From assembly GCA_001595885.1 (NCBI GenBank), contig LSSH01000084.1:1-41329 (forward strand): 41,329 bases of DNA. Reading direction: 5' to 3'. The first letter of the stretch is position 1, and each line of letters begins with the position of its first letter. Positions 2,680 to 41,329 of the stretch are shown in pieces. The stretch comes from Candidatus Proteinoplasmatales archaeon SG8-5 (GTDB lineage: Archaea; Thermoplasmatota; Thermoplasmata; SG8-5). The notes beneath the pieces were generated by a model that did no database searches, had not been told where the DNA came from, and saw only the letters and a program-made list of their open reading frames with translations. The translations under genes and the position numbers were made by a program.

Positions 2680-3383
2680 GGTCTACCTTCTATCTCTTGT
2701 TTCAGGGACTTCAACCCGCGGAGCTGTGCCTTAACCACTACCGGGATGTTCGACAACTGGAACTGGTCTGCGTTCCCTGTTGTCCTACCAAAATGTTGAA
2801 CCGGGACCCAGGATATATTAAATCCCTTCTTCTGTGAGCGGATGACCAACTCAGTGGAGAATCCGTATTTCAGATGCCGTATGTCTGGAACGACAGACTC
2901 GAGGACCTTCCTGTTCATGATCTTGAACCCTGAGTTGATATCCTTGATGTATATTCCAAACCTCGCGTAAACCAGGAGGTTATAAAGCATGGATAAGAAT
3001 TTCCTGTATAACGGGTCACACCTGTTAACCTTCACCCCGCAAACGAGGTCTGAGTTTGTCAGCCTACGGTACAGTTTCCAGAAATCCTTAGGATTGTGGG
3101 TATTATCAGAGTCAGAGTAAAAAATGATATCCCCCTTGGCCTGCAACAGAGCATCCTTCAAGCCCTGCATGTACCCTTTCCTTTCTTCACCAGTTATGAG
3201 CGTCATGGGGATCTCATCGGAGAGTCTTCGTAGTATCTCCCTGGTGCCATCGGTGCTTCCGTCCTCAACAACCAAAAGGTCGCTTCCGGGTCGCTTTCTT
3301 ATGACATCGTCATAGAATCCCTTCACCACTTCCTCTATCACTTCGGCTTCATTGTGCACGGGTATGACAATAGTGAGAGGCAT
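2676..3383 (-). CDS. GT2 glycosyltransferase (dolichyl/polyprenyl-phosphate hexose synthase-like)
   Basis: LTIVIPVHNEAEVI, VVEDGSTDGT and YSDSDN (DXD) motifs. The ORF is open to 3446, but Met22 at 3383 lies one nt after the upstream stop (3385-3387) and just before the GT-A core, so it is the preferred start. Confidence 0.85.
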   Translation of the reverse strand: MPLTIVIPVHNEAEVIEEVVKGFYDDVIRKRPGSDLLVVEDGSTDGTREILRRLSDEIPMTLITGEERKGYMQGLKDALLQAKGDIIFYSDSDNTHNPKDFWKLYRRLTNSDLVCGVKVNRCDPLYRKFLSMLYNLLVYARFGIYIKDINSGFKIMNRKVLESVVPDIRHLKYGFSTELVIRSQKKGFNISWVPVQHFGRTTGNADQFQLSNIPVVVKAQLRGLKSLKQEIEGRP

Positions 3384-3384
3384 C

Positions 3385-4725: not shown

Positions 4726-4859
4726 GATTCATCTCCACGTGTGCTTGATGGGAATCAAATCACGCGAATTAATGTCATCATTGTGGGAACCAGGTGTAAT
4801 ACATAAATAAACCGCTTAATCTCAGCATTATCAAAAACAATAAATACACACATCAGCTA

Positions 4860-7504: not shown

Positions 7505-7517
7505 AGCGGGTATTGAA

Positions 7518-8675: not shown

Positions 8676-8701
8676 TTCACATCGTTGACTCCCATGAGTT
8701 C

Positions 8702-9889: not shown

Positions 9890-11493
9890 ACGATAAGGTC
9901 AGGCCTTTGTTATTGTTTTCCATTGTCATCGTTCTCGTCTTAATCCCGAAATTCACATTCGCCGCAAATGACATCCATGATTCGTTCAGTTACTCGAACT
10001 CTGCTCTCGCGCAAACCGCGATTAACGAAGAGAACATCGAATTCTATCCTTATGAGAACGAAGTGAATACCATCAATCGACATGCGAACGGCTGGAGTAT
10101 TCGGTGGGTCGTCACATCGATGATATCTTCCATAAGCCTTGTCACAGGCCTAAGCCCCAGAGACCTTCAGTCATTGCCGATATGTACATTCGGCATACTG
10201 ATTCTGGCATATCTGGTGGCGATGAAGTTGACGAAGGACTGGCGGCTTTCAACGTTCTACATGGTTATCATTGCCTTCGACCCGACAGTGAACAGCCTGA
10301 CCAACAGCACTTACATACAGGGTTGGGGCTTTTTATTCTTCTACATGCTGATTTATTTGGCCATGATTATTGTGGAAAGGAAGTATTACCTTGCACTCTT
10401 CAAGGAAAGGGAGGATTACAGGCCCTTCGCGTTGTTTGGTTCATTGGCCGTTTGCAGCCTCGTCATGATGTATTTCTCATACTATTCAGCCTTGATCTAC
10501 GCAGTAATCCTGCTTGTGGTCGTTGCAGGCGGCAAGATGTTCATGGGACCGACCCGGCAAATCGACCGAAGGCACATAACCATCTTCATTGCGGCTTTGG
10601 CGGCGATATTTGTAGTATTATACTTTGTGGAAGAGACTGTCAGGTTTGCCATATCCAATTTCCAGGATTTTCTTGAGACTTCATACGATTATGTAATAAC
10701 CGCGATTTCCACCGCAGGACCGCGCTTCTATGTCGGCCTCGCCTCATATATTCTGATGGGAATCCCACTTGTCTTCTTAGGATACAAATGGTTGAGGGCC
10801 ATGCGAAGGAACAAGGCTTTCCCAACCCTGAATTGGAAAGACCTCTTCATTATCGGATTCATAATTACGGGAATACTAAATTTGGCGATTTACACCGGTC
10901 TCGGCCTGGTTGATTTAAAATATATCATCATGTTCTTCTCATTGGCAGCCCTTTACTCAATAGTGAGGCTCAAGCCCTCAGACATAAAAAATTTCAATCT
11001 CTCGAAGTTACGCAGCATTCCAAAGAAACAGGCATTCGCAGCGGTTCTCGCCTTTCTATTCTTATTCAAATTCATCACCTACATTGGCCCCATAATAGAT
11101 GACAATACAACTCAGGACTCTATAGGCCTGGATTGGATCTCATATATCGGCCTTGATGCGGACTCCGCAAGCATCTCCGATCTCAGGTTGAGCGGGGAGA
11201 TAATGCTCTATCATACCGAGCAGGGACATGAAGAATTTAATTCCTATGTGTATTCAGCTTATTACCTTACAAACCTGGAAAATATGAATGCGACAAATTA
11301 TTACGAGTTAAATGAGGAAATGGATTACATAATTCTAACAGGCGCTAATGAGGAAGGCACCTTCAATGTTGGGAATTGGGATAGCTGGTCGACGGATGCT
11401 GATGTAATGGCCATGTTGGGCAATTACACATTCATCCATAAGGTGTATATTTCAAACGACATTTCTGTTTGGAGAGTTATGGTAAATCTTTAG
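9886..11493 (+). CDS. Polytopic membrane protein of unknown family; candidate Wzy-like polymerase or GT-C enzyme
   Basis: 535 aa with an N-terminal signal/anchor, more than 10 hydrophobic segments and a C-terminal soluble tail of about 130 aa. No motif I can name. The function is inferred from context only. Confidence 0.5.
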   Translation: MNDKVRPLLLFSIVIVLVLIPKFTFAANDIHDSFSYSNSALAQTAINEENIEFYPYENEVNTINRHANGWSIRWVVTSMISSISLVTGLSPRDLQSLPICTFGILILAYLVAMKLTKDWRLSTFYMVIIAFDPTVNSLTNSTYIQGWGFLFFYMLIYLAMIIVERKYYLALFKEREDYRPFALFGSLAVCSLVMMYFSYYSALIYAVILLVVVAGGKMFMGPTRQIDRRHITIFIAALAAIFVVLYFVEETVRFAISNFQDFLETSYDYVITAISTAGPRFYVGLASYILMGIPLVFLGYKWLRAMRRNKAFPTLNWKDLFIIGFIITGILNLAIYTGLGLVDLKYIIMFFSLAALYSIVRLKPSDIKNFNLSKLRSIPKKQAFAAVLAFLFLFKFITYIGPIIDDNTTQDSIGLDWISYIGLDADSASISDLRLSGEIMLYHTEQGHEEFNSYVYSAYYLTNLENMNATNYYELNEEMDYIILTGANEEGTFNVGNWDSWSTDADVMAMLGNYTFIHKVYISNDISVWRVMVNL

Positions 11494-11504
11494 GATTAAT
11501 AAAC

Positions 11505-13775
11505 ATGTCAGGAATTACTAGAAAAAATATATATTTAATATTGGCGCTGGTCATAGCGGTAATCCTGATTATCGCCACTATGTCTATTAGTTATATTAAT
11601 TTTCAAAGAATCAAGTCTTTGCCACCCTCAGTTTCTCTTGTCAGGGTGAACGACGATATCAACATAACGATATTATCCGGAACAGTCGTTACATTAACCG
11701 CAATCATCGATGATACTACAAGGGGCGACTCAATAATCCAGGGTGCAAATTATTCCGTTGGATTACGGAACTGGCCCGCATCCCAGATGGAGCCCGTAGA
11801 CGGACTGTTCAACGAGACCATTGAAACGGTGACCGTTGACATTGATACCGGGGGATGGACTGACGGCACCTATCATTTGTACATATATGGCATTGATGAA
11901 TTGGGAAACGGTAACTTCACGCCCAACGAGCATGTGACATTGGTCGTCACCGATCCTCCTCACATATCCAATGTATCGATCAATGGTCAGAGCAATATTG
12001 TCGTGGCTCCGGGTTCGGAAATAATTGTCAATGCCACTCTCGATGATTCCCTAACCGGTGGCTCAACGATCAAGAGCGCTTTCATTACTATCGATGATGT
12101 CAAGATAACCATGGAACCAGAGGATGAGGATTTCGACTCATCCACAGAATGCGTTTCCGCATCGTTGAGCACTCAGGGGTGGTTAGAAGGCAGTCATGAG
12201 ATAGTAATAAACGCTTACGACGATTTGGGAAACGAGGAGACAACTACTCGACAATCAACTTTGTTGGCGATCTCGGACCCCCCGTTAATATCGGACATAC
12301 GACTGTCCAATCGAACCGTGATTTCCGTGGCACCCGGCGTCCCTGTGGAACTGACCGCAAGAATTGACGATACTGACACAGGAAACACTCCCATATATAA
12401 CGCATGGTTCACAATAGACAATTCCACGGTTACTTTTCTAGAACCGGTTGACGGTCAATTTGATAATTCTTCTGAGGAAGTTAGGGGAACCATCATGACA
12501 GAGGGATTGTCTGATGATGTTTACGATATTCAGATCTTCGCCTCAGATACCATTGGAGGTTCAGACGTAACGGCACAAGATAACACCCTCCTTACAATTG
12601 CCGCTCCACCAGAAATCAACAATGTTACAATAGACGGCTTCTCTGAAATCATTGTTGTACCAGGAGGATTGGTAGAGGTGAGGGCGATTGTTGACGATAC
12701 CGATACAGGGAATTCTACAGTCGACGCGGCCTACATCACTTATGGCAATGGGACCGTATATATTGTAGATATGTATCCTACTGACGGTTCATATGACTCG
12801 CCAAGAGAAGAGGTCTTCAGTATAATTGATACGAGCAGTTGGCCGAACGGCACTCATTTTATCCAAGTCCGGGCCAGAGACATAAAACAAAACATCAATG
12901 AGACCGGATGTCATGCGCGCTTGATAGTTACGGCCCCATTCAGGATGTTCGAATATGATTTGATATTACCGGAATATTCGAACAGGTCTTACACCTGGGA
13001 GACTTTGAACCCGGTAATAACCACAGATGTGGATTCAGATGGAGTCCCCAAGAACTTGTTCAATGGGGAACTACATTACCATCCTGTGGCCATAGCCCAA
13101 TATGCGCTGAGAATGCTTGATTCGTACATTTTATCTGGCAATGAGAGTTATTATAATATTTCGGTATCATGCTTACACAGATTGATCAACGAATCCCATT
13201 CTATTGATGGAGCTCTGTATGTGCCCTACACTTTTGATTTTGCCCTTCACGGGCATGCTGACCAAATGATGATCGCACCTTGGTACTCTGGAATGGCACA
13301 AGGCCAGTTTTTATCATTATTATCAAGAATTATTGACATAACGGGTGACGAATACTATTTGGATGTGGCTGAAAAGGTTTTTCGCAGTTTCTACAATCTT
13401 GAGGCACATCATACAACCTGGACAGTATATTCCAATTCACATGATTATTACTGGATAAGCGAATACCCAATGATTGATAAGACCCAGGTGCTCAACGGGT
13501 TCGTGTGGGCTACCTATGGGCTTCTGGATTATTATTTCTTGGTCAACAGCAGTCTATTTGTGAACCAGTTGTTGAGAGCAGCATTAACTTCAATCCAGGA
13601 CCATGTATTGCTATACCGGAGGGTTGGAAATCTTAGTATATATTGCCTTAAACATCAGGTCGTCAGTGTAACATATCACATGATTCACATTGAACAGCAG
13701 GAGACACTATTTCACTACACGAACGAGGCCTACTTCCACGATATGTCCGTGACCTTCTATAATGATTGGCATTGA
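11505..13775 (+). CDS. Membrane-anchored extracellular protein: 4 tandem beta-sandwich repeats plus a D-glucuronyl C5-epimerase-like C-terminal domain
   Basis: ATG at 11505 gives MSGITRKNIYLILALVIAVILIIA (TM anchor); the track start at 11469 is a TTG overlapping the previous gene. Four repeats of about 108-110 aa. C-terminal HYHPVAIAQYALRM and APWYSGMAQGQFLSLLSRI..TGDEYYL resemble the C5-epimerase C-terminal domain family (PF06662-like, from memory). Confidence 0.7.
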   Translation: MSGITRKNIYLILALVIAVILIIATMSISYINFQRIKSLPPSVSLVRVNDDINITILSGTVVTLTAIIDDTTRGDSIIQGANYSVGLRNWPASQMEPVDGLFNETIETVTVDIDTGGWTDGTYHLYIYGIDELGNGNFTPNEHVTLVVTDPPHISNVSINGQSNIVVAPGSEIIVNATLDDSLTGGSTIKSAFITIDDVKITMEPEDEDFDSSTECVSASLSTQGWLEGSHEIVINAYDDLGNEETTTRQSTLLAISDPPLISDIRLSNRTVISVAPGVPVELTARIDDTDTGNTPIYNAWFTIDNSTVTFLEPVDGQFDNSSEEVRGTIMTEGLSDDVYDIQIFASDTIGGSDVTAQDNTLLTIAAPPEINNVTIDGFSEIIVVPGGLVEVRAIVDDTDTGNSTVDAAYITYGNGTVYIVDMYPTDGSYDSPREEVFSIIDTSSWPNGTHFIQVRARDIKQNINETGCHARLIVTAPFRMFEYDLILPEYSNRSYTWETLNPVITTDVDSDGVPKNLFNGELHYHPVAIAQYALRMLDSYILSGNESYYNISVSCLHRLINESHSIDGALYVPYTFDFALHGHADQMMIAPWYSGMAQGQFLSLLSRIIDITGDEYYLDVAEKVFRSFYNLEAHHTTWTVYSNSHDYYWISEYPMIDKTQVLNGFVWATYGLLDYYFLVNSSLFVNQLLRAALTSIQDHVLLYRRVGNLSIYCLKHQVVSVTYHMIHIEQQETLFHYTNEAYFHDMSVTFYNDWH
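11625..12935 (+). repeat. Four in-frame tandem domain repeats (330, 324, 327, 330 nt) within the epimerase-like gene
   Basis: Units start at 11625, 11955, 12279 and 12606, each opening with Pro-Pro (PPSVSLVRV / PPHISNVSI / PPLISDIRL / PPEINNVTI). Shared pattern: A.(I/L)DD(T/S).TG.s.I..A......v.m.P.DG.FD...E......T.gW..G.h.I...A.D..GN. Divergent at nucleotide level. Confidence 0.8.
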
Positions 13776-13844
13776 GCGCGTCGTCTGGCTCCCAGGCCGT
13801 ATCCTCGGCGCAACTGTTAAATAAATACGCCACTTGGCCCAAAT

Positions 13845-15119
13845 GTGCAAATAAAAAATGCCTTACGCAAATCGCTGTCGGTTTCAGGTATAAAGATAGA
13901 TTCGGATTTCGAGAAGAATCAATGGTTAAAGTCCGAAGAGCTCGTTCGGATCCAGAGAACGTTGGTTAGAAAATTGGTCGAGGAGGCGTGCGCGAACGTC
14001 CCGTTTTGGGGTCGTACATTCAGGGACCTGGGCCTTAGACCGTCCGACATCAAGTGTGTGTCGGATCTGGAGAAGCTGCCTGTGACTAGCAAGGCCATGA
14101 TGAGGGGCAAGGCTGAGTTTAGATCTAATATAATCAAGTCCATGCAACCGTTCATGCTCCATACAGGCGGATCCACGGGTCAGGTCTTCAGGTATTACAC
14201 CACAGGTCTAAGCCGTTCCGCTTTGGATGCTTGCAGGATCAGAGCGTGGCGGTGGGCTGGTTACAAGGACAAGGACCGGATTGCCACGTTCACAGGCGGT
14301 GGTCTGGGAAGCAGCAAAAGGAAGTTTGCCCTGGACTGCGTTGGAATGAACGAGGATACAATGGATGAGTACATACAACTGATCAAGAAATATAAAATCG
14401 ATATCCTCAGGGGCATCCCAAGCGGGCTCATGACCTTTGCGAGGCATGTTGAGAAGAGGGGCATAGACCTGAGGAAAAAGTGTGTCCTTACAACGTCGGA
14501 GACCCTTTTGCCCGAACACAGAAAATTCATCGGAGAAGTTCTGGGTGAGGTTTTCGACGGTTACGGTGCCAATGATGGGGGAAGCAGTGCATTCGAATGT
14601 TCTGAGCACAACGGCTGGCACATATCGGTTGACAAGAGCGTCTTTGAGGTCCTGGACCGGAACTGTGAGCATGCGGCCCCAGGGGAAGAAGGAATATTGA
14701 CCGTGACGTGCCTGTACAATTATGGAATGCCATGGATACGTTACATGTCAAATGACCTGGCTGTATTGACCGATGAGAAATGCGCATGCGGAAGGGGTCT
14801 GCCGCTGATGTCCAAGATCAAGGGCAGGACCACCGACCTCATAGTGACCAGGAACACAACGATGAACGGGACGGAGCTGGCCAATCATGTGATCGGTATG
14901 AAGTTGCCCATAAAGGCATTCCAGTTCATTCAGACTGCCACCGAACGCGTGACCATGAGGGTGGCACGTGAACCCGGCTGGGCGGATTCTGATGAGGGAA
15001 AACTCATCAATATGCTCCATCAATATGATCCTGACCTGGATATTCGCTTCGAATATCCGGATGATATTCCCACGACACCTGCGGGAAAAAGCGAATACGT
15101 CGTGAATATGATGGATTGA
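13845..15119 (+). CDS. Adenylate-forming enzyme, PaaK / CapK / coenzyme F390 synthetase-like
   Basis: 424 aa with HTGGSTGQVFRYY (P-loop-like S/T-G-S-T-G of the PaaK/CapK clade). N-terminal SEELVRIQRTLVRKLVEEACANVPFW is typical of CapK-like proteins. GTG start. Confidence 0.8.
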   Translation: MQIKNALRKSLSVSGIKIDSDFEKNQWLKSEELVRIQRTLVRKLVEEACANVPFWGRTFRDLGLRPSDIKCVSDLEKLPVTSKAMMRGKAEFRSNIIKSMQPFMLHTGGSTGQVFRYYTTGLSRSALDACRIRAWRWAGYKDKDRIATFTGGGLGSSKRKFALDCVGMNEDTMDEYIQLIKKYKIDILRGIPSGLMTFARHVEKRGIDLRKKCVLTTSETLLPEHRKFIGEVLGEVFDGYGANDGGSSAFECSEHNGWHISVDKSVFEVLDRNCEHAAPGEEGILTVTCLYNYGMPWIRYMSNDLAVLTDEKCACGRGLPLMSKIKGRTTDLIVTRNTTMNGTELANHVIGMKLPIKAFQFIQTATERVTMRVAREPGWADSDEGKLINMLHQYDPDLDIRFEYPDDIPTTPAGKSEYVVNMMD

Positions 15120-15190
15120 TATCGTAGAAGTTTTAATATTGGACAAATAAGTTATACAATGTAGTTATTTATCCGCACTGTGGAATTTGG

Positions 15191-16354
15191 ATGAAGCGTG
15201 TTCTGGTTGTTTTGAAATCCTCATACAAGAAATATCAGACAGACTCACGAGTCCAACGTCAGGTTCGAACCCTTTGTGACCGTGGTTTTACCGTGACCGT
15301 ATTGCTGGTTGATAATCCAAGAAATATGCCGAAGCCAGGCACTCTTCCATATGAAACTGTATGCGTTGACCTTCCGGGATTCTGGAGTTCAAAAGGTGCA
15401 TCGCGCATTAAGCAAATGTGGCTCCAAGTACGATATTTCCTAAAGGCAAAAAAGTGCATAAAGTCTCTGAATCCCGATGTCCTGATAATGAATGACGTGA
15501 ACACGCTCGTATTCTCAAGATCCAAGGCTGGTTTGAAGATCTACGACTCCCATGAGCTGTGGTACGACCTTGTTGAGTATCATGGGTATGTTCGAGGGCG
15601 TTTTGGGAGGTGGCTTTTCAAATCAATAGAAAAGCGTTACTCCAAGGATGTGGACGCATTCATCACCGTGAACGATTCCATGGCCGAGTTTTTGGGAAAG
15701 CGCCTTGGTAAGAGGTTCCACGTGATACGAAATGTGCCTTTAATCGAAGAATCGGACCGGATCGACATACGGAAGTCCAATGGATTGCCGAACACCACAT
15801 TTATTATCGTCCATTCAGGGTCGATCAGCGAGAACAGGGGACTGAATGAACTTGGCCAATTGATCACGAGATTGTACAAAGAAGAGGTTCGCAATGTGTC
15901 ATTTGTGTTATATGGTATAGATAAAGGTACAATGAAAAGACTTAGGATGATGTGCACCAAGGATGCATTAAAACAACATAGGTTTCATGGTCCGTTATCT
16001 CAAAAAGAATTATATTCTACGCTGAAAACAGCAGACCTCGGCATCTTATTAACGAAAAATACAAATCTGAACAACTACCATTCGCTGCCGAACAAGCTCT
16101 TCGAATACTTAATGAACGGATTGCCTGTCATTTGCTCTGATTTCCCTGAGATGCGAACACTCATCGAAAAATATGACGTTGGATGGTTGGTAAATCCTGA
16201 AAATACGGAAGACGTCAACGCTGCTATAACCCAGGCACATACCGATAGTTCAATGTTACGTAAATACAAAGAGAATACTACTCGTCTAACAGGAGATATT
16301 TCTTTTAAACAGGAAATGGGAATTCTCGTTGAGTTGATCGAGGCCTCTCATTAG
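15191..16354 (+). CDS. GT4-like (GT-B) glycosyltransferase
   Basis: C-terminal LPNKLFEYLMNGLPVICSDFPEMRTLIEKYDVGWLV; N-terminal Rossmann-like half. Confidence 0.75.
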   Translation: MKRVLVVLKSSYKKYQTDSRVQRQVRTLCDRGFTVTVLLVDNPRNMPKPGTLPYETVCVDLPGFWSSKGASRIKQMWLQVRYFLKAKKCIKSLNPDVLIMNDVNTLVFSRSKAGLKIYDSHELWYDLVEYHGYVRGRFGRWLFKSIEKRYSKDVDAFITVNDSMAEFLGKRLGKRFHVIRNVPLIEESDRIDIRKSNGLPNTTFIIVHSGSISENRGLNELGQLITRLYKEEVRNVSFVLYGIDKGTMKRLRMMCTKDALKQHRFHGPLSQKELYSTLKTADLGILLTKNTNLNNYHSLPNKLFEYLMNGLPVICSDFPEMRTLIEKYDVGWLVNPENTEDVNAAITQAHTDSSMLRKYKENTTRLTGDISFKQEMGILVELIEASH

Positions 16355-16365
16355 TCAGTACGACT

Positions 16366-17871
16366 TCATTCTACATCTTTCTTCACGACGACTCTGATTA
16401 TGGTTTGGATACTATCCTTAGTGAGGATGCCGGAAAAATAAAGCGCTGCCGCATATATCGGTATCAGGACCAAACCTACTATGTTCTCTGATATTCCTAT
16501 TAGAGTAATCGACAGATAAATTGAGATGATAAACAACACGAACAGGACTAGGCCTGTGAATAACATACGCATCTCCATTCTTCTTTTGAGGTATTTCGGT
16601 AAGTAGAGGAAAAAGAGGATGACCTCCACGATGAAGCTTAGGCCTATCGCTATAGCAGCACCATTCAACAGACCAAATTCAAACGAAAGCATGATTATGG
16701 ATACGGGGATGAGGACGATGCCCAAACCAATGTTCGTGATCGCCTTCATCACAGATATCTTTGAGGGGATGTCCGGCCTTCCGTGACTGGCAAAAATAAT
16801 TGTAATGGGAGTGAGCACACTGTATAAAAGCCCCAGTATCACTAGGATCCTCAAGGGAGTGATTGCCAATAGGAAATCCTCCTTTCCTGGGAAAAGTATC
16901 ATTATCAGATCGTCCACGAATATCAGGAGCAATAAAGTTAGTATGGACAGGAAGGTGAACGAGAACCTTAATATCGTGTTCACAAGCGATACTATTGTCG
17001 CCTTTTGTCGTTTGGCATAATAATATGAGATAACTGGGTAGGTTATCTTTTGTACTGCAGAAGGAGCCATCATTAAGAAGTTGAAGAACATCAATGCGAT
17101 GGCGTAGATGCCCACTGAGGAATCGGTCAGGTAGAATCCAATCAGCAGGGTGGCCGCCTGTGAGTTGATCAATGATACCACATTTGCTATGTGTAATTGA
17201 CCTCCGAAGTTCGTAATCTTCTTTGCATGATACTTGAAACGCTGAAACTTAAATCTGAATATTGACCTGTGGGTTATCAGACAGATAATCGTGACTATTG
17301 GCGGAGGAAGGGCAAGGGCGATGACAGCTCCTGTCAGGCCGTATCCCTCCGAGATGAATAACAGTGTCAGAGCCAATATCAAGCCATTTCTCAGGGCCTC
17401 GAAAGCGGTGTAATGCTTCATCAACCTCAGGCCGTTGAATAGGCTAATGTACACGTTATTGAACATTACAAATGGGAACGAAAATGCCACTATCCAGAGA
17501 TAATAACCGAGGTCTGGCATGTCGAATATCGTCTCTATGAAAGGAGCCAAAGCGATGGTGAGGATGGCTGTGATGATCCCGATAATGAAGCTCAGAACCA
17601 AGGCAGCGGTGGTTATTGAATCCCTGGTCTTTCTTCTATCCCTGAATTCGGCTATGAATTTCACTACCGCCACCGGAACACCTATGCTGGCGACCAACGT
17701 GATGATCAACATGAGTGAGAACACGATAGTGTAGGTTCCCAACCCGGCAGAATCAAAATAATTTCCCAGGATTATCTTAAGGAGAAATCCGACACTCATA
17801 ACAAGAACTGAACTGATAAAGGCCCAGCCAACATCGAACGTGAATTTTCTAGCTACTTTTACTGTTACCAT
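16366..17871 (-). CDS. wzx: Wzx-like oligosaccharide flippase (MOP superfamily, polysaccharide biosynthesis protein)
   Basis: 501 aa with about 12-14 TM segments. N-terminal KFTFDVGWAFISSVLVMSVGFLLKIILGNYF is typical of the PST/Wzx family. Embedded in the glycosyltransferase cluster. Confidence 0.8.
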   Translation of the reverse strand: MVTVKVARKFTFDVGWAFISSVLVMSVGFLLKIILGNYFDSAGLGTYTIVFSLMLIITLVASIGVPVAVVKFIAEFRDRRKTRDSITTAALVLSFIIGIITAILTIALAPFIETIFDMPDLGYYLWIVAFSFPFVMFNNVYISLFNGLRLMKHYTAFEALRNGLILALTLLFISEGYGLTGAVIALALPPPIVTIICLITHRSIFRFKFQRFKYHAKKITNFGGQLHIANVVSLINSQAATLLIGFYLTDSSVGIYAIALMFFNFLMMAPSAVQKITYPVISYYYAKRQKATIVSLVNTILRFSFTFLSILTLLLLIFVDDLIMILFPGKEDFLLAITPLRILVILGLLYSVLTPITIIFASHGRPDIPSKISVMKAITNIGLGIVLIPVSIIMLSFEFGLLNGAAIAIGLSFIVEVILFFLYLPKYLKRRMEMRMLFTGLVLFVLFIISIYLSITLIGISENIVGLVLIPIYAAALYFSGILTKDSIQTIIRVVVKKDVE

Positions 17872-17984
17872 TCAGTCCCCTTTTGAATACAACACGGTTC
17901 CATTTACCTTTACAAACAGGTGTACAGACAGAATATTGATATAGTATAGATAATATTTGCAGAGATATATTCTGGAGGAGACTG

Positions 17985-18980
17985 ATGAGGATATTGCACA
18001 TCGGAAACCTGGCCTCTGTTGGCTACAACCTAACAAAGAGGCTCAGAGAACTTGGGTACGACGCCCATCTTTTTGACTGGAGCACGACCGAAATCATTGA
18101 CAGGGAGGATGCGGACTGGGTCATCCGCCCGAAAAGGCACTTCTTCGATGCAAGTGATTTCCTTGCATTGAGACTCGGCCGATTTGACCTTGTACACATG
18201 CATACGTTATTGAGCGATTACTGTGTCCTCCAATCGATAAAATTCCTGATGAGGGCTGGAACTCCGACTAAGTTCGCGCATGCACATTGCTCCATTAATA
18301 GCGGTTCAAAGGAAATGTCCCCAAGGTTGAAATCTTATATCATTCGTTACGGCGCCAAGGCAGTCTTCTTTTCAACACCCAACATCGGTCCCAACATCCG
18401 ACGCTTCCCCCAAAGGAAGGTTTTTCTACCTAACCCCGTCAACACCGAGATATTCAGACCTGGTGGGGAGATTGAGTATACCAACAGAGTACTTTGTTGG
18501 GTGAAGATGGACCACAACAAAGGTTATGATGTCATCCTCGAAGCAATTAACCACTGTCCCGAGATTGACTTTGATATTCCTAGAATCGGTACACTGAAAT
18601 TCGATAAGATAAAATTCCCACCCAATGTACGCTTAATACCCCCTATACCGCATGACAAGGTTCCCGCTCTGTTGAACAAATATCCGCTGATTCTCGAACA
18701 GTTCCTCGTGGGGGCAATGGGGCAGTCTGGTTTAGAGGCGATGGCCTGTGGCAAACCAGTAATTTGTAATTGGAACAAGGATAATGACATTGAATATTCT
18801 GAACCGTGTCCGGTGGTGTCAGCGAAAAAACCAGAGGATATTGCCCAGAAAATCCGAGAAACAATAGATAATCACGTACAAATAGGTACAAAATCCAGAG
18901 ATTGGGTCGTGAAACACCATTCAATGCAAGTGGCTGTCGATAAATTATTGAACGAATACCGACTTCATGTTGATTTATAA
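17985..18980 (+). CDS. GT-B fold glycosyltransferase-like protein (distant GT4)
   Basis: MRILHIGNLASVGYNL start and C-terminal GAMGQSGLEAMACGKPVI. GGAGGAG Shine-Dalgarno-like sequence 6-12 nt upstream. Confidence 0.65.
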   Translation: MRILHIGNLASVGYNLTKRLRELGYDAHLFDWSTTEIIDREDADWVIRPKRHFFDASDFLALRLGRFDLVHMHTLLSDYCVLQSIKFLMRAGTPTKFAHAHCSINSGSKEMSPRLKSYIIRYGAKAVFFSTPNIGPNIRRFPQRKVFLPNPVNTEIFRPGGEIEYTNRVLCWVKMDHNKGYDVILEAINHCPEIDFDIPRIGTLKFDKIKFPPNVRLIPPIPHDKVPALLNKYPLILEQFLVGAMGQSGLEAMACGKPVICNWNKDNDIEYSEPCPVVSAKKPEDIAQKIRETIDNHVQIGTKSRDWVVKHHSMQVAVDKLLNEYRLHVDL

Positions 18981-18994
18981 TCGTAAAATACGTA

Positions 18995-19891
18995 TTAAAT
19001 AACATTTACCCATATGTGTAGTTTATAATCGGTCATCGAACCGTTGATATCCAACGACCAATCAATTTGGTAAAGGCCCGGTTCTGTAAATCCGAAAACG
19101 AAGGTGTCTTCGAATGAATTCTCTGGGACAAGTGTGATATTTCGTATGAGGACTGTATCTGCCGATAAGGAATGCGTTGACGCCCAATTTTCCTCGTACT
19201 GCACCGTTGTGTGGTTTCCCACTGCGGTTGTTATCGTGTAAACTTTCTGCTCTTCTTCATGGCAGGTTATTCCTATGATAATCGCGGCCGTTTGATTTGC
19301 GGATATGTTCACGGGATAACCGCCATAAGTCCCGTCACTGTCTAGGATATAGAATTCGGTATATGCTGGTTCTATGGATGGCATCGCAAGCATATAAGCC
19401 ATGAAACATCCGGTCATAATTAACATAATCATTATCGACATGCTAAATAGTTTATCAGTTGAATCGGCTGAACGTGAAGCGATTTCTGAGATCATTAAGT
19501 TATATCGGTCGTCCATCGGTAGCGTTGATCTCCGATAACATGCAATCCCACTAAATATGAATATAATGAGTACAAGACCTACCAGTATATTGGTCAAGGT
19601 CAGGCCTGTTAAGTAACTGGTAACCAGCCCGTTAATTGCTACAATGACAATGCTTAGACCGATGCTTAAGGCAAGACGTTCCAGGGTGGAAAGACCTTTT
19701 TCAGGCCATAAACTGGATGTCAGTGTATACCCTGGTATCACCAGAAGCAAGGGAAGGCCGAAGGCGACCCTGAGGAGATTCCCTTCCTGTAGGAACAACG
19801 CTGTTAAAACACCCACAAGAGTGAATATTATGACCAATACAAGGTCAATTGGATATCTTTGAATTCCTGGAATATTCAGACTCGCAGTCAT
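18995..19891 (-). CDS. DUF1616-family membrane protein with an extracellular beta-rich C-terminal domain
   Basis: N-terminal IDLVLVIIFTLVGVLTALFL..LRVAFGLPLLLVIPGYTLTSSLWP matches my recollection of archaeal DUF1616. 4-5 TM segments, then a soluble domain of about 130 aa with N-x-S/T sequons. Confidence 0.6.
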   Translation of the reverse strand: MTASLNIPGIQRYPIDLVLVIIFTLVGVLTALFLQEGNLLRVAFGLPLLLVIPGYTLTSSLWPEKGLSTLERLALSIGLSIVIVAINGLVTSYLTGLTLTNILVGLVLIIFIFSGIACYRRSTLPMDDRYNLMISEIASRSADSTDKLFSMSIMIMLIMTGCFMAYMLAMPSIEPAYTEFYILDSDGTYGGYPVNISANQTAAIIIGITCHEEEQKVYTITTAVGNHTTVQYEENWASTHSLSADTVLIRNITLVPENSFEDTFVFGFTEPGLYQIDWSLDINGSMTDYKLHIWVNVI

Positions 19892-19918
19892 CTACTTACA
19901 CCCAATTCTGAAGGAGAA

Positions 19919-20593
19919 TCAGTCTTTTTCCTCCTCTTTCAACTCACCTCTGTTCAGGAAGAACTTCTTCTCCACATGGCCCTCGACCACAGGGTCGTGC
20001 GAGGCTATGACGACGGTGGCTCCGAACTCCCTGTTGGCCTTCTTGAATGCGTCGATGACTATGTCACAGTTATCCAGGTCGAGCGAGGCGGTGGGCTCGT
20101 CCGCAAGCAATACCGATGGGTTGTTGGCCAGGGCCCGGGCGACCGCCACCCTCTGCCTCTCTCCTCCGCTGATCTCATCAGGATATTTTTCCGTGTAATC
20201 CTCGAGGTCGAAGGTGTGGAGGAGTTCTCTGACGCGCCAATCCCCGTCGTGCCACTTTGCGATCTTCATTGGGAGAAGAACGTTCTCGTAGACCGTCAGG
20301 TCACCTATGAGATTGTGGGCCTGGAAGACCGTGCCTATCTTGTGTAAGCGAATGTTGGCCAAATCCTTATCGGATAGACTTGCTGTGTCATACCCGTTCA
20401 GTTGGATCTCGCCCTGCGATGGAACGTCAATGCAGCCGATGAGGTTCAGGAGGGTCGTCTTTCCGCTGCCAGACCTGCCTTTAATGAGTATCATCTCCCT
20501 CGGAGCGATCTCCAGGTTTATGCCTTGAAGAACCTGCCTTTTCCCGTCATATGTCTTCCAGACATCCTTGACAACAATGTTCATCTGTTTCAT
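19919..20593 (-). CDS. ABC transporter ATP-binding protein, MacB/LolD/FtsE-like
   Basis: Walker A GRSGSGKTTLLN, signature ISGGERQRVAVARAL, Walker B VLLADEPT, H-loop ASHD. Confidence 0.9.
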   Translation of the reverse strand: MKQMNIVVKDVWKTYDGKRQVLQGINLEIAPREMILIKGRSGSGKTTLLNLIGCIDVPSQGEIQLNGYDTASLSDKDLANIRLHKIGTVFQAHNLIGDLTVYENVLLPMKIAKWHDGDWRVRELLHTFDLEDYTEKYPDEISGGERQRVAVARALANNPSVLLADEPTASLDLDNCDIVIDAFKKANREFGATVVIASHDPVVEGHVEKKFFLNRGELKEEEKD

Positions 20594-23042: not shown

Positions 23043-24701
23043 TTGCTATTGGTAATAGCGTTCAGCGTCAGGCTTGCTCCCCTTCACGAATCTCCGATGC
23101 CCTACAACATAGACGGCTTCCCGCTCGCACGTATCTCCGAGTCAATCATCGATACCGAACATATTCCATCCCCCTCGGGGTACGAGGGATTGATAGGTTA
23201 CAATTTGAAGCTGCCGATATTCTCACTTGTCCTGACCTGCTTCTCGTTGGTTCTCGGTGTTGAACCATTGACGCTGTTACCCTACTTCTGCGCTTTGATC
23301 GGTTCAATGGCTGTCCTGTTCATTTACGTGCTCACCCTTCACCTCACTCAGAACCGGTTGGCCGGCTTCGTAGCTGGCCTGTTCGCTGCCCTGACTGGTC
23401 TGTTCGTCTACGTGACAACCGCGGCCATGAAGCAGCTGTTGGCCATCGTTCTTCTGGTATTCGCTGTGTACCTCTTCACCAGGAGGGAAGATTGGCGCTG
23501 TCGTCTGTTGATGGTCGTTACATTGATCATGTTACCGTTCACCCATCACCTGACGACGTTGATAGCGCTGCTGATATTGTCGACTGCCATAGGCACGACG
23601 GCCATCAAGGGCAACCTTTTCAAGTTGAGGGCCCTGAGGAGCCTCGCCCTGGATGTCGTTACTGGTCCTCTCATACTGATATTATCCCTTGCCTACTACC
23701 GCAGCGTGAACCTGGAGTTTGTCAACGAAGTGGGCAACATCAACGACGTTGTCCTGCTTGGCTCGGTGTTCATACTGTTGTTCGCGGCGGCGAAGCTTAT
23801 TTCCGAAACAGCACAGAGCAAGCCGTGGTTCTTCCTGACGCGGAAGGATGGCCAGGAATTGGGAGTGGCACATATTTTCGATGAGAAGGTCCTCATCTTC
23901 GTTGTCGGGATTGGCACCCTCTACCTCAACTCCAGGATCAAGGTGTTCACGGGCAGCGTAATGACAACCGACACGCTGTTCAATCTCATGTTCCCGTATC
24001 TGATACTCACAGTCATCGGCCTCATAGGTTTCAACGTTCTACGGTATTCCCGTTTTCCCAGGAGGGACATCATCATCGGCATGTTCATGGCCCCGTTCTG
24101 CGTGATGGTCTTTGCCGTCCTCAGGGGTCTGGACATCTTTAACTTCACCCTCGTATACAGGAGCTACAACTTCATCGACGTACCAATGGCCATCGTTGTG
24201 GGCGTCGGAGCGGCCTACCTGTTCACCAGGATGAGGAAGTTCACAATCAGGCAAAGGGAGTTCAGAGTGCTTCCCTACGGTGTCCTCGCCGTGGTTGGCC
24301 TCCTTTGTGTCGCATCCGTCCCCCTCGCGTACAACAGCGAGGAGGCGTTCGGCATCCAGGAGATCACGTATCCGTACGAGTTCGAGGGCCTGGAATGGGT
24401 GGCGGAGGCTAATGTCACAGCGGTGGTAACAGATCAGAGGTACGGTGACATCATCGAGCCGTACTTCGGAGTGGATGCTGACAGAACGGGACCCTGGAGA
24501 ATGAAGAGTCAATATATCGATACCGGCGATGTCATTTTGATTTCCAATTACTGGACCGACGGCGGGGCACAGATGTCGATACTGGGCCGCGAATATTTCA
24601 CAGACCACTGGCTGGAAGACTTCTACGATAATCTGGATTTCAATATCGTATATGTGGGCGGTCCCGAAGGCAGGGAAGTGGTGGTTGCGATTGCAGGATG
24701 A
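23043..24701 (+). CDS. Large polytopic membrane protein, GT-C-like topology, unknown family
   Basis: About 13 hydrophobic segments plus a C-terminal soluble domain of about 130 aa. The first canonical start is TTG at 23043, but the open frame upstream encodes WLNRRHTILLGI, which would complete TM1 (see findings). Confidence 0.55.
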   Translation: MLLVIAFSVRLAPLHESPMPYNIDGFPLARISESIIDTEHIPSPSGYEGLIGYNLKLPIFSLVLTCFSLVLGVEPLTLLPYFCALIGSMAVLFIYVLTLHLTQNRLAGFVAGLFAALTGLFVYVTTAAMKQLLAIVLLVFAVYLFTRREDWRCRLLMVVTLIMLPFTHHLTTLIALLILSTAIGTTAIKGNLFKLRALRSLALDVVTGPLILILSLAYYRSVNLEFVNEVGNINDVVLLGSVFILLFAAAKLISETAQSKPWFFLTRKDGQELGVAHIFDEKVLIFVVGIGTLYLNSRIKVFTGSVMTTDTLFNLMFPYLILTVIGLIGFNVLRYSRFPRRDIIIGMFMAPFCVMVFAVLRGLDIFNFTLVYRSYNFIDVPMAIVVGVGAAYLFTRMRKFTIRQREFRVLPYGVLAVVGLLCVASVPLAYNSEEAFGIQEITYPYEFEGLEWVAEANVTAVVTDQRYGDIIEPYFGVDADRTGPWRMKSQYIDTGDVILISNYWTDGGAQMSILGREYFTDHWLEDFYDNLDFNIVYVGGPEGREVVVAIAG

Positions 24702-24702
24702 G

Positions 24703-25710
24703 GTGGTCCTGGACGGTTCGGTCGGTGAAGGCGGCGGCCAGGTCTTGAGGTCAGGATTGGCCTTCGCCGCCATTACTGGTAAGAAACTGGCGATCGAGAA
24801 CATCAGGGCGAACCGGCCTAAACCCGGACTGGCAAACCAGCACCTGTCAGGTCTGAGGGCCATTGCCAAGATATCGAACGCTGACGTCACGGGCGGAGAC
24901 CTTGGATCCACCAGGTTATCCTTCCATCCGGATCAGATCAAACACGGGGACCACGAGTTCGCAGTGGGGACCGCAGGAGCGGTCACACTTGTGCTGCAAA
25001 CTATTTTACCCGCGCTGGCCTCTGTCACGGGTGAGTCAAGGATCAGTATTTCCGGGGGAACCGACGTGAAATGGGCGCCGCCTGTGGACTACTACAGACT
25101 TGTGCTGTTCCCTATGCTTAGTAAGATGGGAGTGGATTGTGCCATCGATGTGAAACTGAGGGGATATTATCCCAAGGGCGGCGGTTTGATCGAGGCCGTC
25201 ATCAGGTCCCAGGGGACGATAGGACCCTTACCGGAGAGTTATGAGGACATAGAGGGGATTTCAGGTATTATCAACATCACGGGCCTGCCCATTCATATCG
25301 CAGAAAGGATCGAGCGGGAAGTGATGAACGGCATTCAGACGAAAGTGCCATGTGATGCCGACATTCGGATCGAACAAGGGGCCAAAGGGCCCAGCCAGGG
25401 TGTCGGTGTCGTCCTCGCAGCCGGGGGCGGGGATAGGGTCATCGGATCAAACTCCCTCGGGGAGCGGGGCAAAACCGCCGAGAAGGTGGGCAAGGAAGCC
25501 GTGCAAGGACTGATGGCAGATATCAACGCCCGGGCGGACTTAGATGTGCATGCGGCCGACCAGATATTGCCCTTCATGGCGCTGGCCCCGAAAGGCGGTC
25601 GCTTCACGACCCGTTCGTTGAGCAATCATGCGATGACGAATATCGACGTCATAGAGAGGTTCCTGGGTAAAACCTTCGAGGTGGATGGAACTAGGGTCGA
25701 AAGGCTTTAA
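24703..25710 (+). CDS. rtcA: RNA 3'-terminal phosphate cyclase
   Basis: LDGSVGEGGGQVLRSGLAFAAITGKKLAIENIRANRPKPGLANQHL and the His motif LDVHAADQILPFMAL. The family N-terminus begins right at ..DGS.GEGGGQ, so in-frame GTG 24703 (or TTG 24691) is preferred over the track ATG 24652, which lies inside the upstream gene. Confidence 0.85.
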   Translation: MVLDGSVGEGGGQVLRSGLAFAAITGKKLAIENIRANRPKPGLANQHLSGLRAIAKISNADVTGGDLGSTRLSFHPDQIKHGDHEFAVGTAGAVTLVLQTILPALASVTGESRISISGGTDVKWAPPVDYYRLVLFPMLSKMGVDCAIDVKLRGYYPKGGGLIEAVIRSQGTIGPLPESYEDIEGISGIINITGLPIHIAERIEREVMNGIQTKVPCDADIRIEQGAKGPSQGVGVVLAAGGGDRVIGSNSLGERGKTAEKVGKEAVQGLMADINARADLDVHAADQILPFMALAPKGGRFTTRSLSNHAMTNIDVIERFLGKTFEVDGTRVERL

Positions 25711-39726: not shown

Positions 39727-40647
39727 ATGGCTGAGATGATCGGGGAAACCGCCGCGGTCCTGACTGCAACCCTCTGGACCTTCAATTCGATACTGTTCGC
39801 GTCGGCTGGCAGGAAGATCGGCTCGGTCAGTGTCAACGCCTTCAGGATTGCCATCGCCGTTGGCCTGCTCACCATCACCCACTTCATACTGCTGGGCACC
39901 TTCCTCCCGATGGCCTCGGACGAGCAATGGTTCTGGATAGGCCTGAGCGGGATCATCGGACTGGGAATAGGTGATTTCGCCCTGTTCGCTGCCTTCGTCA
40001 TCATCGGACCCAGAAGGTCGGTGCTCATGATGGCGCTGTCGCCGATCTTCGCTGCCATGGTCGCCTATCTCATGCTCGGGGAGGAGCTGTCGACCTGGAC
40101 GGGCATCGGCATTGCCGTGACCTTGACTGGAGTAATAGTCGTTATCCTTGAGAGGGAAGAGGCTTCTGACGAGAAGCCCATCTCCGATAGGACGAAGGTC
40201 TGGGGGACCAGCTTAGGCCTGATAGGGGCCGTCGGCCAGGGAGTGGGCATCGTATTTGCCAAACAAGGCATGCTGCTGTACCCGGACCCGGACAACATCG
40301 ACATCACCCTCTCGGCCACCCTCATCAGGATGATAGCCGGCGCATTGTTCGTCTGGATAGTCGTGGTCTTCGCCGGCAAGCTCCCACAATTACGGAAGGC
40401 CCTGAAGAACAGGAGGGGAATGGCCGAGACCTCCGCGGGTGCGTTCATCGGCCCCTTCATCGGCGTGACCCTCTCGATGGTCGCCGTCCTGTACACACAA
40501 GCTGGCGTTGCACAAACCCTGATGTCGCTCATGCCCGTGTTCATCATCCCGGTAATCTGGGTGCTATTCAGGCAGAGGACGAGCTGGAGAGGTATCCTGG
40601 GAGCCATTGTGGCAGTGGTCGGTGTGGCCATTCTGTTCCTTGTTTGA
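39727..40647 (+). CDS. EamA/DMT-superfamily transporter
   Basis: 306 aa, 10 TM segments in two 5-TM halves. N-terminal AAVLTATLWTFNSILFASAGRKIGSVSVNAFRIAIAV is typical of EamA domains. Confidence 0.85.
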   Translation: MAEMIGETAAVLTATLWTFNSILFASAGRKIGSVSVNAFRIAIAVGLLTITHFILLGTFLPMASDEQWFWIGLSGIIGLGIGDFALFAAFVIIGPRRSVLMMALSPIFAAMVAYLMLGEELSTWTGIGIAVTLTGVIVVILEREEASDEKPISDRTKVWGTSLGLIGAVGQGVGIVFAKQGMLLYPDPDNIDITLSATLIRMIAGALFVWIVVVFAGKLPQLRKALKNRRGMAETSAGAFIGPFIGVTLSMVAVLYTQAGVAQTLMSLMPVFIIPVIWVLFRQRTSWRGILGAIVAVVGVAILFLV

Positions 40648-40697
40648 TTAGTATCCATAACCTACATATACCTTATCCTTTTTCAGGAGGTTGGTAA

Positions 40698-40921
40698 GGG
40701 CCTGTAGCTTAGTCAGGCGGAGCGTCTGGCTCATAACCAGATGGTCGCCGGTTCAAACCGAAGGCCAGCGTCTTTGCATAACCGCTGGCAGAGCTGGTCG
40801 AGGCACGGACGAAAACGATAATGTCATACAAGCGACCCTTTTTCGTCAAGTGTCCGAAAATTGCATAGCAGTTTTCGGATTGCCTTGGAACGCCTCTTCG
40901 TTGGAAATCCGGTCAGGCCCA
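40698..40921 (+). tRNA. tRNA with anticodon CAU (elongator Met or Ile2 type), interrupted by a 150-nt intervening sequence in the T-loop
   Basis: 5' part 40698-40757: acceptor GGGCCTG, D-arm GCTT/GAGC, anticodon arm TCTGG-CTCATAA-CCAGA, T-stem GCCGG, then TTCAAA. 3' part 40908-40921: T CCGGT CAGGCCC A. It completes the T-loop (TTCAAAT), the T-stem (5 pairs, 1 G-U) and a perfect 7-bp acceptor stem plus discriminator A. No encoded CCA. Confidence 0.85.
40758..40907 (+). other. Intervening sequence (putative non-canonical tRNA intron or inserted element)
   Basis: 150 nt. The junction is ambiguous within AAA at both ends (40755-40757 / 40905-40907). Closing helix 40759-40763 / 40896-40900. Three hairpins: 40764-40789, 40808-40847, 40853-40879. 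Confidence 0.7.
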
Positions 40922-40983
40922 CTTAGTATTTTCACCCACCCCACCCCGCCCTTTTTAACCTCCATCATTTATGGGGCGGTGTT

Positions 40984-41329
40984 ATGAGCGTGTTCGAGCT
41001 TCTTGACGAGCGTATCCAGGGTTCTCTGGCGAAGTTGGGCATAACGGAACCGTCGGATGCTCAGGTAGGGGTGATACCGGAGCTGTTGAAGGGCAACGAC
41101 CTGCTCCTCGTGGCCCCGACCGGCATAGGCAAGACGGAAGCGGCCATGTTGCCCATATTGGACGACATACTGGAAAAAGGACCGGAGGGCTTCTACGTCA
41201 TATATGTAACTCCGTTGAGGGCCCTCAACCGCGACATGCTGAGGAGGCTGGAGTGGTTCGGCAAGGAGCTTGGGATCACGGTCGGGGTCAGGCACGGGGA
41301 CACCAGCCAGTATGAGCGCACAAAGCAGG
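40984..41329 (+). CDS. Lhr-like large DEAD/DEAH-box helicase, N-terminal part (runs off the window)
   Basis: MSVFELLDERIQGSLAKLGITEPSDAQVGVIPELLKGNDLLLVAPTGIGKTEAAMLPIL...YVTPLRALNRDM. Q-motif, motif I and motif Ia follow the Lhr pattern. Open to the window end, so missing from the track; the 40969-41295 minus ORF is its antisense shadow. Confidence 0.85.
   Translation, partial: MSVFELLDERIQGSLAKLGITEPSDAQVGVIPELLKGNDLLLVAPTGIGKTEAAMLPILDDILEKGPEGFYVIYVTPLRALNRDMLRRLEWFGKELGITVGVRHGDTSQYERTKQ

Follow-up and report, generated by a model that had tools for sequence, protein, structure and literature searches.

Here we describe a tRNA(CAU) gene at 40698-40921 on the forward strand of a 41,329-nucleotide (nt) stretch of DNA, contig LSSH01000084.1 of assembly GCA_001595885.1 (Candidatus Proteinoplasmatales archaeon SG8-5), to which we refer in its full length as the window. 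The gene is interrupted within the T-loop, and we believe that it is very probably a functional tRNA gene with a spliceable intron in an uncultured Methanomassiliicoccales-related Thermoplasmata archaeon. This view builds on the anatomy of the gene, on bulge-helix-bulge (BHB)-like pairing at its exon-intron junctions, on homologous introns that occupy the same site with a patchy distribution and a conserved fold, and on the lack of other copies in the sequence examined.

The window is also contained within a 67.6-kb metagenomic contig (ENA ERZ27279932) in which archaeal markers are present. The relatives to which it was compared are Thermoplasmata/Methanomassiliicoccales genome bins in which the orthologous tRNA(CAU) gene adjoins the gene for the Lhr helicase; in the window, the Lhr gene begins 65 nt downstream of the tRNA.

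Two separated exons yield a perfect tRNA(CAU)

The 5' exon (40698-40757, forward strand) comprises tRNA positions 1-59, namely the 5' strand of the acceptor stem, the D-arm, the CAU anticodon arm, the variable loop, the 5' strand of the T-stem and T-loop residues U54-A59. The 3' exon (40908-40921, forward strand) supplies U60, the T-stem 3' strand CCGGU, the acceptor 3' strand CAGGCCC and the discriminator A73; CCA is not encoded. The intervening intron (40758-40907, forward strand) is 150 nt long and lies at tRNA position 59/60. When the exons are joined at the predicted junction …GGUUCAAA/UCCGGU… (here and below, a slash within a motif marks the cut), they form a perfect cloverleaf of 74 nt that ARAGORN calls as tRNA(CAU). 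The 5' exon is 93-97% identical to its intron-less or differently interrupted orthologues in the related loci L003, L005, L006 and L008, and the anticodon loop CTCATAA is uninterrupted. The pair U6:A67, which spans the intron, also occurs in L008, and other orthologues carry C6:G67 instead. The tRNA appears to be of the elongator type because it has G1:C72 and does not have the three G:C pairs at the base of the anticodon stem. Its GGGCC acceptor is presumably like that of archaeal Ile tRNAs, and the identity could be either Met or Ile2.

The junctions form a near-canonical bulge-helix-bulge

In the minimum free energy (MFE) fold of the precursor (40698-40921; -92.2 kcal/mol, z = -4.5), the acceptor and T stems re-form across the intron and both exon-intron junctions fall in bulges. 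All elements of the motif lie on the forward strand. The outer helix h is the T-stem itself, in which GCCGG (40747-40751) pairs with CCGGU (40909-40913); it was recovered by the MFE fold as well as by a geometric BHB scanner and is 100% paired in the four homologous genes described below, with one compensatory change from C:G to G:C. The central helix H consists of 4 base pairs (bp) between the T-loop residues UUCA (U54 U55 C56 A57; 40752-40755) and UGGA (40902-40905), and the partner of U55 is G in the window and A in the three other homologues, L009, L010 and L012. The 5' bulge A58 A59/C (40756-40758) is predicted to be cut after its second nucleotide, between 40757 and 40758, and the 3' bulge AA/U60 (40906-40908) between 40907 and 40908. 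The second outer helix, h', is at the same time the closing helix P1 of the intron and joins CGAAGG (40759-40764) to UCUUCG (40895-40900); within it, CGAAG and CUUCG are invariant in all four homologues. A single unpaired U (40901), located between h' and H on the 3' strand and opposite the 5' bulge, is the sole departure from a strict 3-4-3 BHB, and the scanner found this extra U in all four genes. With 5 bp in h, 4 bp in H and 5-7 bp in h' across the four homologues, the junctions correspond to a relaxed BHB.

The geometric scanner ranked the T-loop site first in each of the four genes and, as a positive control, recovered the strict textbook hBHBh' motif of the 37/38 intron in L009. A 4-bp central helix together with an outer helix of 5 bp or more in the correct register was found in 84 of 200,000 random 150-mers that were drawn from the window (about 4e-4). 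The BHB register modelled here would be the counterpart of the 37/38 register in the anticodon loop, and because the two match, cuts at 40757/40758 and 40907/40908 are predicted, which correspond to tRNA position 59/60 and an intron of 150 nt.

These results bear on an original prediction that had been made from the letters of this locus. Its exon and intron coordinates and its uninterrupted anticodon loop were correct, and the intron-closing helix that it had drawn (40759-40763 with 40896-40900) is real and present in the fold. It had seen no unambiguous canonical BHB, but the MFE fold and the geometric scanner identify a near-canonical one with one unpaired U; it had also considered the splice point ambiguous owing to the AAA at both junctions, but the geometry of the BHB fixes both cuts. 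Finally, it had likened the flanks caaaccg and gaaatccg to an imperfect target duplication. The two-fold pseudo-symmetry of a BHB (AA/N followed by a C-G-rich helix) fits these flanks better, and a target-site duplication was rejected since the flanks follow this symmetry and recur in a different tRNA with a different T-stem.

Homologous introns occupy the same site in related loci and in tRNA-Ala

Orthologues of the interrupted gene differ in which introns they carry. The window has a T-loop intron and no anticodon-loop intron. Its closest relative by Lhr identity, L008 (86%), has the converse arrangement, with a 31-nt anticodon-loop intron and no T-loop intron, and the same combination is present in L017 (68%) and L002 (64%). 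Two-intron genes occur in L009 (JGI 3300033155; Lhr identity 79%), with an anticodon-loop intron of 29 nt and a T-loop intron of 140 nt, and in L010 (GCA_030670795.1; 71%), with 31 and 140 nt, respectively. In L003, L005 and L006 (each 60%) the gene has neither intron. A fourth member of the family was found in L012, a 91.6-kb JGI contig, where a homologous intron of 120 nt interrupts position 59/60 of a tRNA-Ala(CGC) with G3:U70; its junction motifs are identical to those of the tRNA(CAU) copies despite the different T-stem, and between the two kinds of gene the first 50 nt of the intron are 76-84% identical. This contig was retrieved by an exact-pattern scan of metagenomes (one scan, two matches), of which the second match, L013, was discarded as a chance match in a GC-rich bacterial coding region.

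No additional T-loop introns were found in the further Lhr relatives L011, L014-L019 and L072-L075. By BLAST and regular expression, neither the window, L001 nor the related loci (269 kb), which represent a small part of each genome, contained a second copy, and a covariance model built from the intron's 5' domain, run over the same 269 kb, returned only the four known copies. A scan of viral contigs with GGCAGAGCTGGYCRAGGC gave 52 matches, none of which had another hallmark of the family, and all of them are therefore regarded as chance.

Conservation of the T-loop intron does not follow that of its hosts. Between L009 and L010 the intron is 91% identical, compared with 70% for the Lhr protein, 25% for the downstream flank and 35% for the anticodon-loop introns (shuffled baseline, 28%), and between the window and L009 the values are 67% for the intron and 79% for Lhr. 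The first 50 nt of the intron are 76-88% identical in all pairs, while the flanks are at the random baseline. A neighbour-joining tree of Lhr gave the groupings ((window, L008), L009) and (L010, L017), so that the intron is present in three lineages (window, L009, L010) and absent from two sisters (L008, L017), a distribution that requires at least two losses or several gains. Judged from these comparisons, the intron appears far better kept than adjacent non-coding DNA, with a similarity that does not track host similarity, and this pattern fits either selection on the intron or horizontal spread. Conservation alone is no proof of mobility because an unrelated anticodon intron of 31 nt is conserved to the same degree, at 97% in the comparison of L008 with L010.

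The loci with a 31-nt intron in the anticodon loop lie on the minus strand of L002 (2802-2906), L008 (4788-4892), L010 (4713-4957) and L017 (6674-6778). This intron is 97% identical between hosts whose Lhr proteins share 70% identity, and no strict 3-4-3 BHB was found for it in the scan. At the same anticodon-loop site, L009 carries an unrelated 29-nt intron with a perfect strict BHB, and L017 a third, different sequence. Therefore, these comparisons suggest that introns turn over at a single anticodon-loop site.

The intron has a compact fold with a conserved 5' domain

Folded alone, the intron of the window reaches -53.2 kcal/mol (z = -3.2), and the z-scores of all four copies are -3.2, -8.3, -6.4 and -4.4. 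The four introns share a common plan that consists of the closing helix, a hairpin P2 and a domain with two hairpins. P2 (40764-40789, forward strand) belongs to the conserved 5' domain and pairs GCCAGCG with CGCUGGC around a 12-nt loop (27 of 28 cells paired). It is followed on the same strand by a conserved single-strand or helix segment, AGAGCUGGUCGAGGCACGG (40790-40808), with the core GGCAGAGCUGGYCRAGGC present in all four aligned introns, and by a variable domain (40809-40894) in which GACGAAAA pairs with UUUUCGUC and CCGAAAAUUGC with GCAGUUUUCGG. The two hairpins of this domain are supported by the fold and by compensatory changes relative to L009 and L010 at pairs 64:106, 68:102, 116:138 and 122:132. 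In the alignment of the four sequences, standard pairs make up 96.6% of the proposed pair cells, as opposed to 30-54% when the partners are slid, and five pairs are altered on both sides, among them one T-stem pair (between the isoacceptors) and pairs of the variable hairpins. In addition to the unpaired U, P2 and the core segment, all four introns have both junction motifs in common: GGTTCAAA precedes and CCGAAGGCCAGCG follows the 5' cut, and CTTCGTTG(A/G)AA(A/T) precedes the 3' cut, with T after it.

Searching 40600-41000 against Rfam at E values up to 10 gave nothing credible for the intron and no snoRNA, sRNA, intron or ribozyme family. A box C/D guide RNA within the intron was considered and rejected: the GGAUGA and CUGA of L009 and L010 become GGACGA and CCGA in the window, the GGAUGA of the L009 and L010 introns sits within a perfect hairpin, and RUGAUGA and CUGA boxes that form a K-turn were not found.

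Standard tools misread or overlook the gene

On the raw window, ARAGORN placed a tRNA at 40697-40769, closed on the first bases of the insert, and Rfam placed one at 40702-40768 with 29.5 bits, barely over the gathering score of 29. These calls raise the alternative that the tRNA ends near 40769 and that the downstream 14-nt match is coincidental, or that the assembly is a chimera, a concern that the original prediction had voiced as possible misassembly at the junctions. In the unspliced version, positions 1:72 and 2:71 are mismatched, the T-stem has 3 bp and the T-loop is aberrant, and the single-intron orthologue of L008 scores 57.8 bits in Rfam. Because of the two acceptor mismatches and the 3-bp T-stem we regard the call at 40697-40769 as an artefact, produced by a GGCC palindrome at the start of the intron. 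Misassembly is contradicted by the identical split architecture in four independent assemblies (ENA, JGI twice and NCBI). Taken together, this alternative is effectively refuted and would be extremely improbable.

The same tools perform no better on the relatives. At the gathering score, Rfam made no tRNA call in L009, L010, L015 and L019 and a shortened call of 30.6 bits in L012, and the two-intron tRNA orthologues are overlooked altogether by ARAGORN and Rfam. In L009, the JGI gene caller laid a hypothetical protein of 95 amino acids over the two-intron tRNA (4650-4937). As a consequence, genome bins of this clade will seem to be without a CAU tRNA and without tRNA-Val(CAC), which distorts inferences on completeness and decoding.

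Signs that the clade can process non-canonical introns

Euryarchaeota with alpha4 or alpha'2 splicing endonucleases have single, canonical introns (PMC4090602). In three genomes of Methanomassiliicoccales, tRNAscan-SE 2.0 detected 13 canonical and six non-canonical introns and one two-intron gene (PMC8450103, Table S7).

At four loci of the clade we observed a tRNA-Val(CAC) gene with an intron of 37-44 nt in the D-loop (at about position 20a/21): L014 (9201-9318, plus strand), L015 (minus strand, between 9125 and 10000), L019 (5300-5411, plus strand) and L074 (about 1345-1457, plus strand). This intron has a 4-bp H helix (CTGG with CCAG), the bulges TT/A and AA/A, compensatory changes in h' (CAC with GTG, CGC with GCG, CAATAG with CTATTG) and an outer helix h that is nearly missing, and it thus represents the relaxed HBh' type. 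These genes are called wrongly by ARAGORN, 'SeC' being one such call, and Rfam overlooked both that were scanned (L015, L019). Since the clade carries a non-canonical D-loop intron, its endonuclease must handle such substrates, and we infer that the enzyme tolerates non-canonical positions and relaxed motifs, which would place the near-canonical T-loop motif within its reach.

The window also encodes RtcA, an RNA 3'-terminal phosphate cyclase, at 24652-25710 on the plus strand (Pfam RTC, 4e-78). RtcA is an RNA-end-healing enzyme, not the ligase, and is often tied to RtcB ligation pathways; neither an RtcB nor an EndA gene was found near it in the window.

The locus has been rearranged

Compared with L002, L003, L006, L008, L009 and L010, the window carries the tRNA and its promoter in an inverted segment of about 40666-40932, while the flanking EamA and Lhr genes are collinear. 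The putative promoter (40666-40697, forward strand), assigned from its position and conservation, includes an A/T-rich TATA-like box, ACATATACC, about 30 nt upstream of the tRNA, and the stretch CTCCTGAAAA(A)GGATAAGGTATAT is kept upstream of the orthologous tRNA in L008, in inverted orientation. The lineage of the window, which has the inversion, shows neither an anticodon-loop intron nor the downstream hairpin that we refer to as X. This hairpin of about 72 nt lies on the minus strand just 3' of the tRNA in L008 (about 4689-4760) and L010 (about 4613-4686) and folds with -24 to -27 kcal/mol. The tRNA 3' exon (ATCCGGTCGGGCCCAT) is repeated directly in the 3' arm of X and in inverted form in the 5' arm, and the inner stem of X covaries between the two loci. 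X was rejected as an alternative 3' exon since it formed no BHB with the T-loop; it may serve as a terminator, represent a scar left by recombination or be a small RNA.

Elsewhere in the related loci, the intergenic region upstream of Lhr in L015 (about 9400-9900) and L019 (about 5400-5800) contains a conserved, GC-rich and structured-looking stretch of about 230 nt (…GGTTTAAGCTAACCCCGCCC…GGCGAGG…CCCCGGCCTCCA…) that has no Rfam match at the gathering score; it may be new, or else a known RNA that has diverged or been interrupted. Positions 1-20000 of the window are a block of low GC content (0.43-0.48, compared with 0.53-0.57 in the remainder) that is packed with genes of glycosylation and polysaccharide metabolism, namely those for PMT_2, a GT2 and five GT1/GT4 proteins, a B12-radical SAM protein, a C5-epimerase-like protein, a Wzx-type flippase and a DUF1616 protein, which looks like a surface-glycan island, possibly horizontally acquired.

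Discussion

We propose that the gene is most likely functional and spliced rather than broken. Within the primary transcript, the intron would fold on itself into the closing helix P1, the hairpin P2 and the two-hairpin domain, and its terminal UGGA would pair with T-loop bases U54-A57. The BHB thus assembled would consist of the 5-bp T-stem, the AA/U60 bulge, the 4-bp helix, the A58 A59/C bulge and 5-6 bp of P1, and the archaeal splicing endonuclease EndA would cleave both bulges. An RtcB-type ligase would then join the exons into the 74-nt tRNA, followed by CCA addition, and the intron would probably be circularised, as are BHB-excised tRNA introns in vivo (PMC12558985). Over longer times, a family of introns with a conserved 5' domain may have been gained and/or lost repeatedly at this one site of tRNA(CAU) orthologues and tRNA-Ala(CGC).

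Several observations weigh against this interpretation. Owing to U40901 the motif is not the strict 3-4-3 hBHBh' of alpha4 and alpha'2 endonucleases, and the MFE fold favours an alternative in which A40756 (A58) pairs with U40901; the resulting 5-bp central helix with its 2-nt bulge would be an unlikely substrate for EndA. The only structurally characterised EndA from Thermoplasmata, the alpha'2 enzyme of T. acidophilum, has narrow specificity (PMC6379350), and neither EndA nor the ligase of the host was seen, with no EndA detected in the window or, by tblastn, in 269 kb of related loci. The BHB core is invariant among the homologues and hence offers no covariation, neither for nor against the pairing, and the homologue set is small (n = 4), with the L009 and L010 introns 91% identical to each other. 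Moreover, a T5 tract in the variable domain (40839-40843), which is not kept in L012, could act as a weak archaeal terminator, and a second intact tRNA(CAU) of the same isotype could reside elsewhere in the incomplete genome.

Such a paralogue is central to the view that the locus is a tRNA pseudogene, disrupted by a small non-autonomous DNA element (derived from a miniature inverted-repeat transposable element (MITE) or from IS200/IS605, with subterminal hairpins), for which the incomplete genome leaves room, and which would be in keeping with hairpins near both ends of the insert, with AAA at both junctions and with a locus prone to rearrangement, as judged from the inverted tRNA segment. 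We consider this highly improbable. The exons are perfectly intact, including the pair that spans the insert, the promoter moved along with the gene in the inversion, and the insert has stayed at one site both in lineages whose Lhr proteins are 70-79% identical and in a second tRNA, with ends that pair with the T-loop in exactly the register that EndA needs. Neither dispersed copies (in 269 kb, by BLAST, regular expression and covariance model) nor insertions at non-tRNA sites were found, the insert is not bounded by long terminal inverted repeats, and the low-complexity AAA is all that could pass for a target duplication; an IS200/IS605 omega-RNA was rejected as a lead since omega-RNAs are without BHB motifs. 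Of the options in the original prediction, an unusually long non-canonical archaeal intron has thus gained support from the BHB and the same-site homologues, and the disrupted pseudogene has been contradicted by the intact exons and by the retention of the intron in orthologues; as for a small inserted element, the disruption did not hold up, but the insert does behave like an element that is gained and lost, with one family in two isoacceptors and a patchy distribution. A group I or group II self-splicing intron, or a small element with a ribozyme, has a precedent in bacterial tRNA genes, including tRNA-Ile2 and tRNA-fMet, which can carry group I introns (PMC8450103). In the present case an Rfam search at E values up to 10 matched no intron or ribozyme, 150 nt are too short, the insertion lies in the T-loop and not in the anticodon loop, the host is an archaeon and the junctions form a BHB, so that this reading is effectively refuted and the least probable of those considered here.

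The question of what the intron itself may be is separate from that of splicing. It is possible, and we suggest this tentatively, that the intron is a mobile or functional structured RNA of 120-150 nt with a selected 5' domain, not a passive spacer. It might have moved, for instance, through gene conversion across the near-universal GGTTCAAAT motif or by a reversal of splicing at the BHB with subsequent reverse transcription and recombination, and the excised intron could persist as a stable circular RNA. In line with this idea, one family occupies exactly the same position in two isoacceptors with differing T-stems, its distribution on the host tree is patchy, intron and Lhr similarities are incongruent (0.91 with 0.70 for L009-L010, 0.67 with 0.79 for window-L009), the first 50 nt are conserved next to flanks at the random baseline, the fold is compact with compensatory changes, and intron transposition has a precedent in the Thermoproteales, as Fujishima 2010 is cited in PMC4090602 and PMC4033280. 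Nevertheless, no copy was found outside the tRNA T-loop and none in addition to the known ones in 269 kb of related DNA or in viral contigs, with metagenomes covered by one exact-pattern scan, and the intron is accompanied by neither a reverse transcriptase nor any other gene for mobility, matches no Rfam family and has no conserved C/D boxes. Furthermore, the unrelated 31-nt anticodon intron is as conserved (97%, L008-L010), which may reflect folding constraints on pre-tRNA, and the incongruence could stem from rate variation in the lineage of the window, whose tRNA gene also became inverted. The fuller proposal, a distinct structured-RNA family whose 5' domain is selected, which moves between tRNA genes and persists as a functional circular RNA, is in our opinion unlikely. 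If it were true, the locus would provide a tractable and recently active case in which to study how archaeal tRNA introns transpose, a mechanism that is still unsolved, and would do so in a lineage whose endonuclease has long been taken to be strict.

With regard to spliceability, our results add evidence that non-canonical and multiple introns are not limited to lineages with (alpha-beta)2 or epsilon2 endonucleases, and they lead to the prediction that the endonuclease of this Thermoplasmata clade tolerates near-canonical and relaxed BHB motifs. In addition, with its presence/absence polymorphism, its swapped unrelated anticodon introns and a T-loop intron that recurs in tRNA-Ala, the locus amounts to a compact natural experiment on the gain, loss and movement of archaeal tRNA introns.

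The intron belongs to a known class, as both the 59/60 site and the sharing of introns across isoacceptors have been described. Introns at 59/60 are known from tRNA-Cys (13 nt) and tRNA-Pro of ARMAN-2 and from Crenarchaeota, the ARMAN-2 tRNA-Cys substrate is cleaved in vitro by an epsilon2 endonuclease, and lineages with (alpha-beta)2 enzymes are described as having a major insertion site at 59/60 (Fujishima et al., 2011, PMC3239211). The intron of the window resembles these cases in its T-loop position, in a BHB-type junction that uses the T-stem as outer helix and in a removal that restores the cloverleaf. It differs from them in that they are short, with 13 nt in the case that was tested, are not reported to have a conserved internal fold and occur in DPANN/ARMAN or Crenarchaeota, where the endonuclease type is known, rather than in Thermoplasmata. 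Similar intron sequences in different isoacceptors are attributed to the Thermoproteales (Fujishima et al., 2010, as cited in PMC4090602 and PMC4033280), and homologous introns in tRNA(CAU) and tRNA-Ala(CGC) are alike in this respect, which likewise implies gain by transposition with the BHB limiting the sites. As far as those citations describe them, the Thermoproteales have many short introns at many positions in one genome, whereas here a single long family occupies one position in two isoacceptors on separate metagenomic contigs. The 37/38 intron of tRNA-Trp in Haloferax, Pyrococcus and Halobacterium, in which a box C/D guide RNA is nested (PMC4090602, PMC12558985), is similarly long, structured and conserved with a BHB junction and sets a precedent for a functional, circularised intron RNA, but it lies at the canonical position and has C/D boxes and a K-turn, whereas the T-loop family has no conserved C/D box or Rfam match. 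Closest in lineage are the Methanomassiliicoccales introns of PMC8450103, with which the two-intron genes of L009 and L010 fit; Table S7 gives counts and leaves out positions, sequences and lengths, and its six non-canonical introns may or may not belong to the T-loop family.

Finally, a 2014 review lists introns of 11-129 nt with medians of 12-25 nt, a range that the 150 nt of the window exceed, and the conserved fold raises the possibility of a functional circular RNA. The family is further set apart by its occurrence in a Thermoplasmata clade, by a second intron that sometimes lies alongside and by presence/absence polymorphism among orthologues. Compared with the systems described above, the length of 120-150 nt, the conserved compact fold with its 5' domain and the sharing with tRNA-Ala look new.

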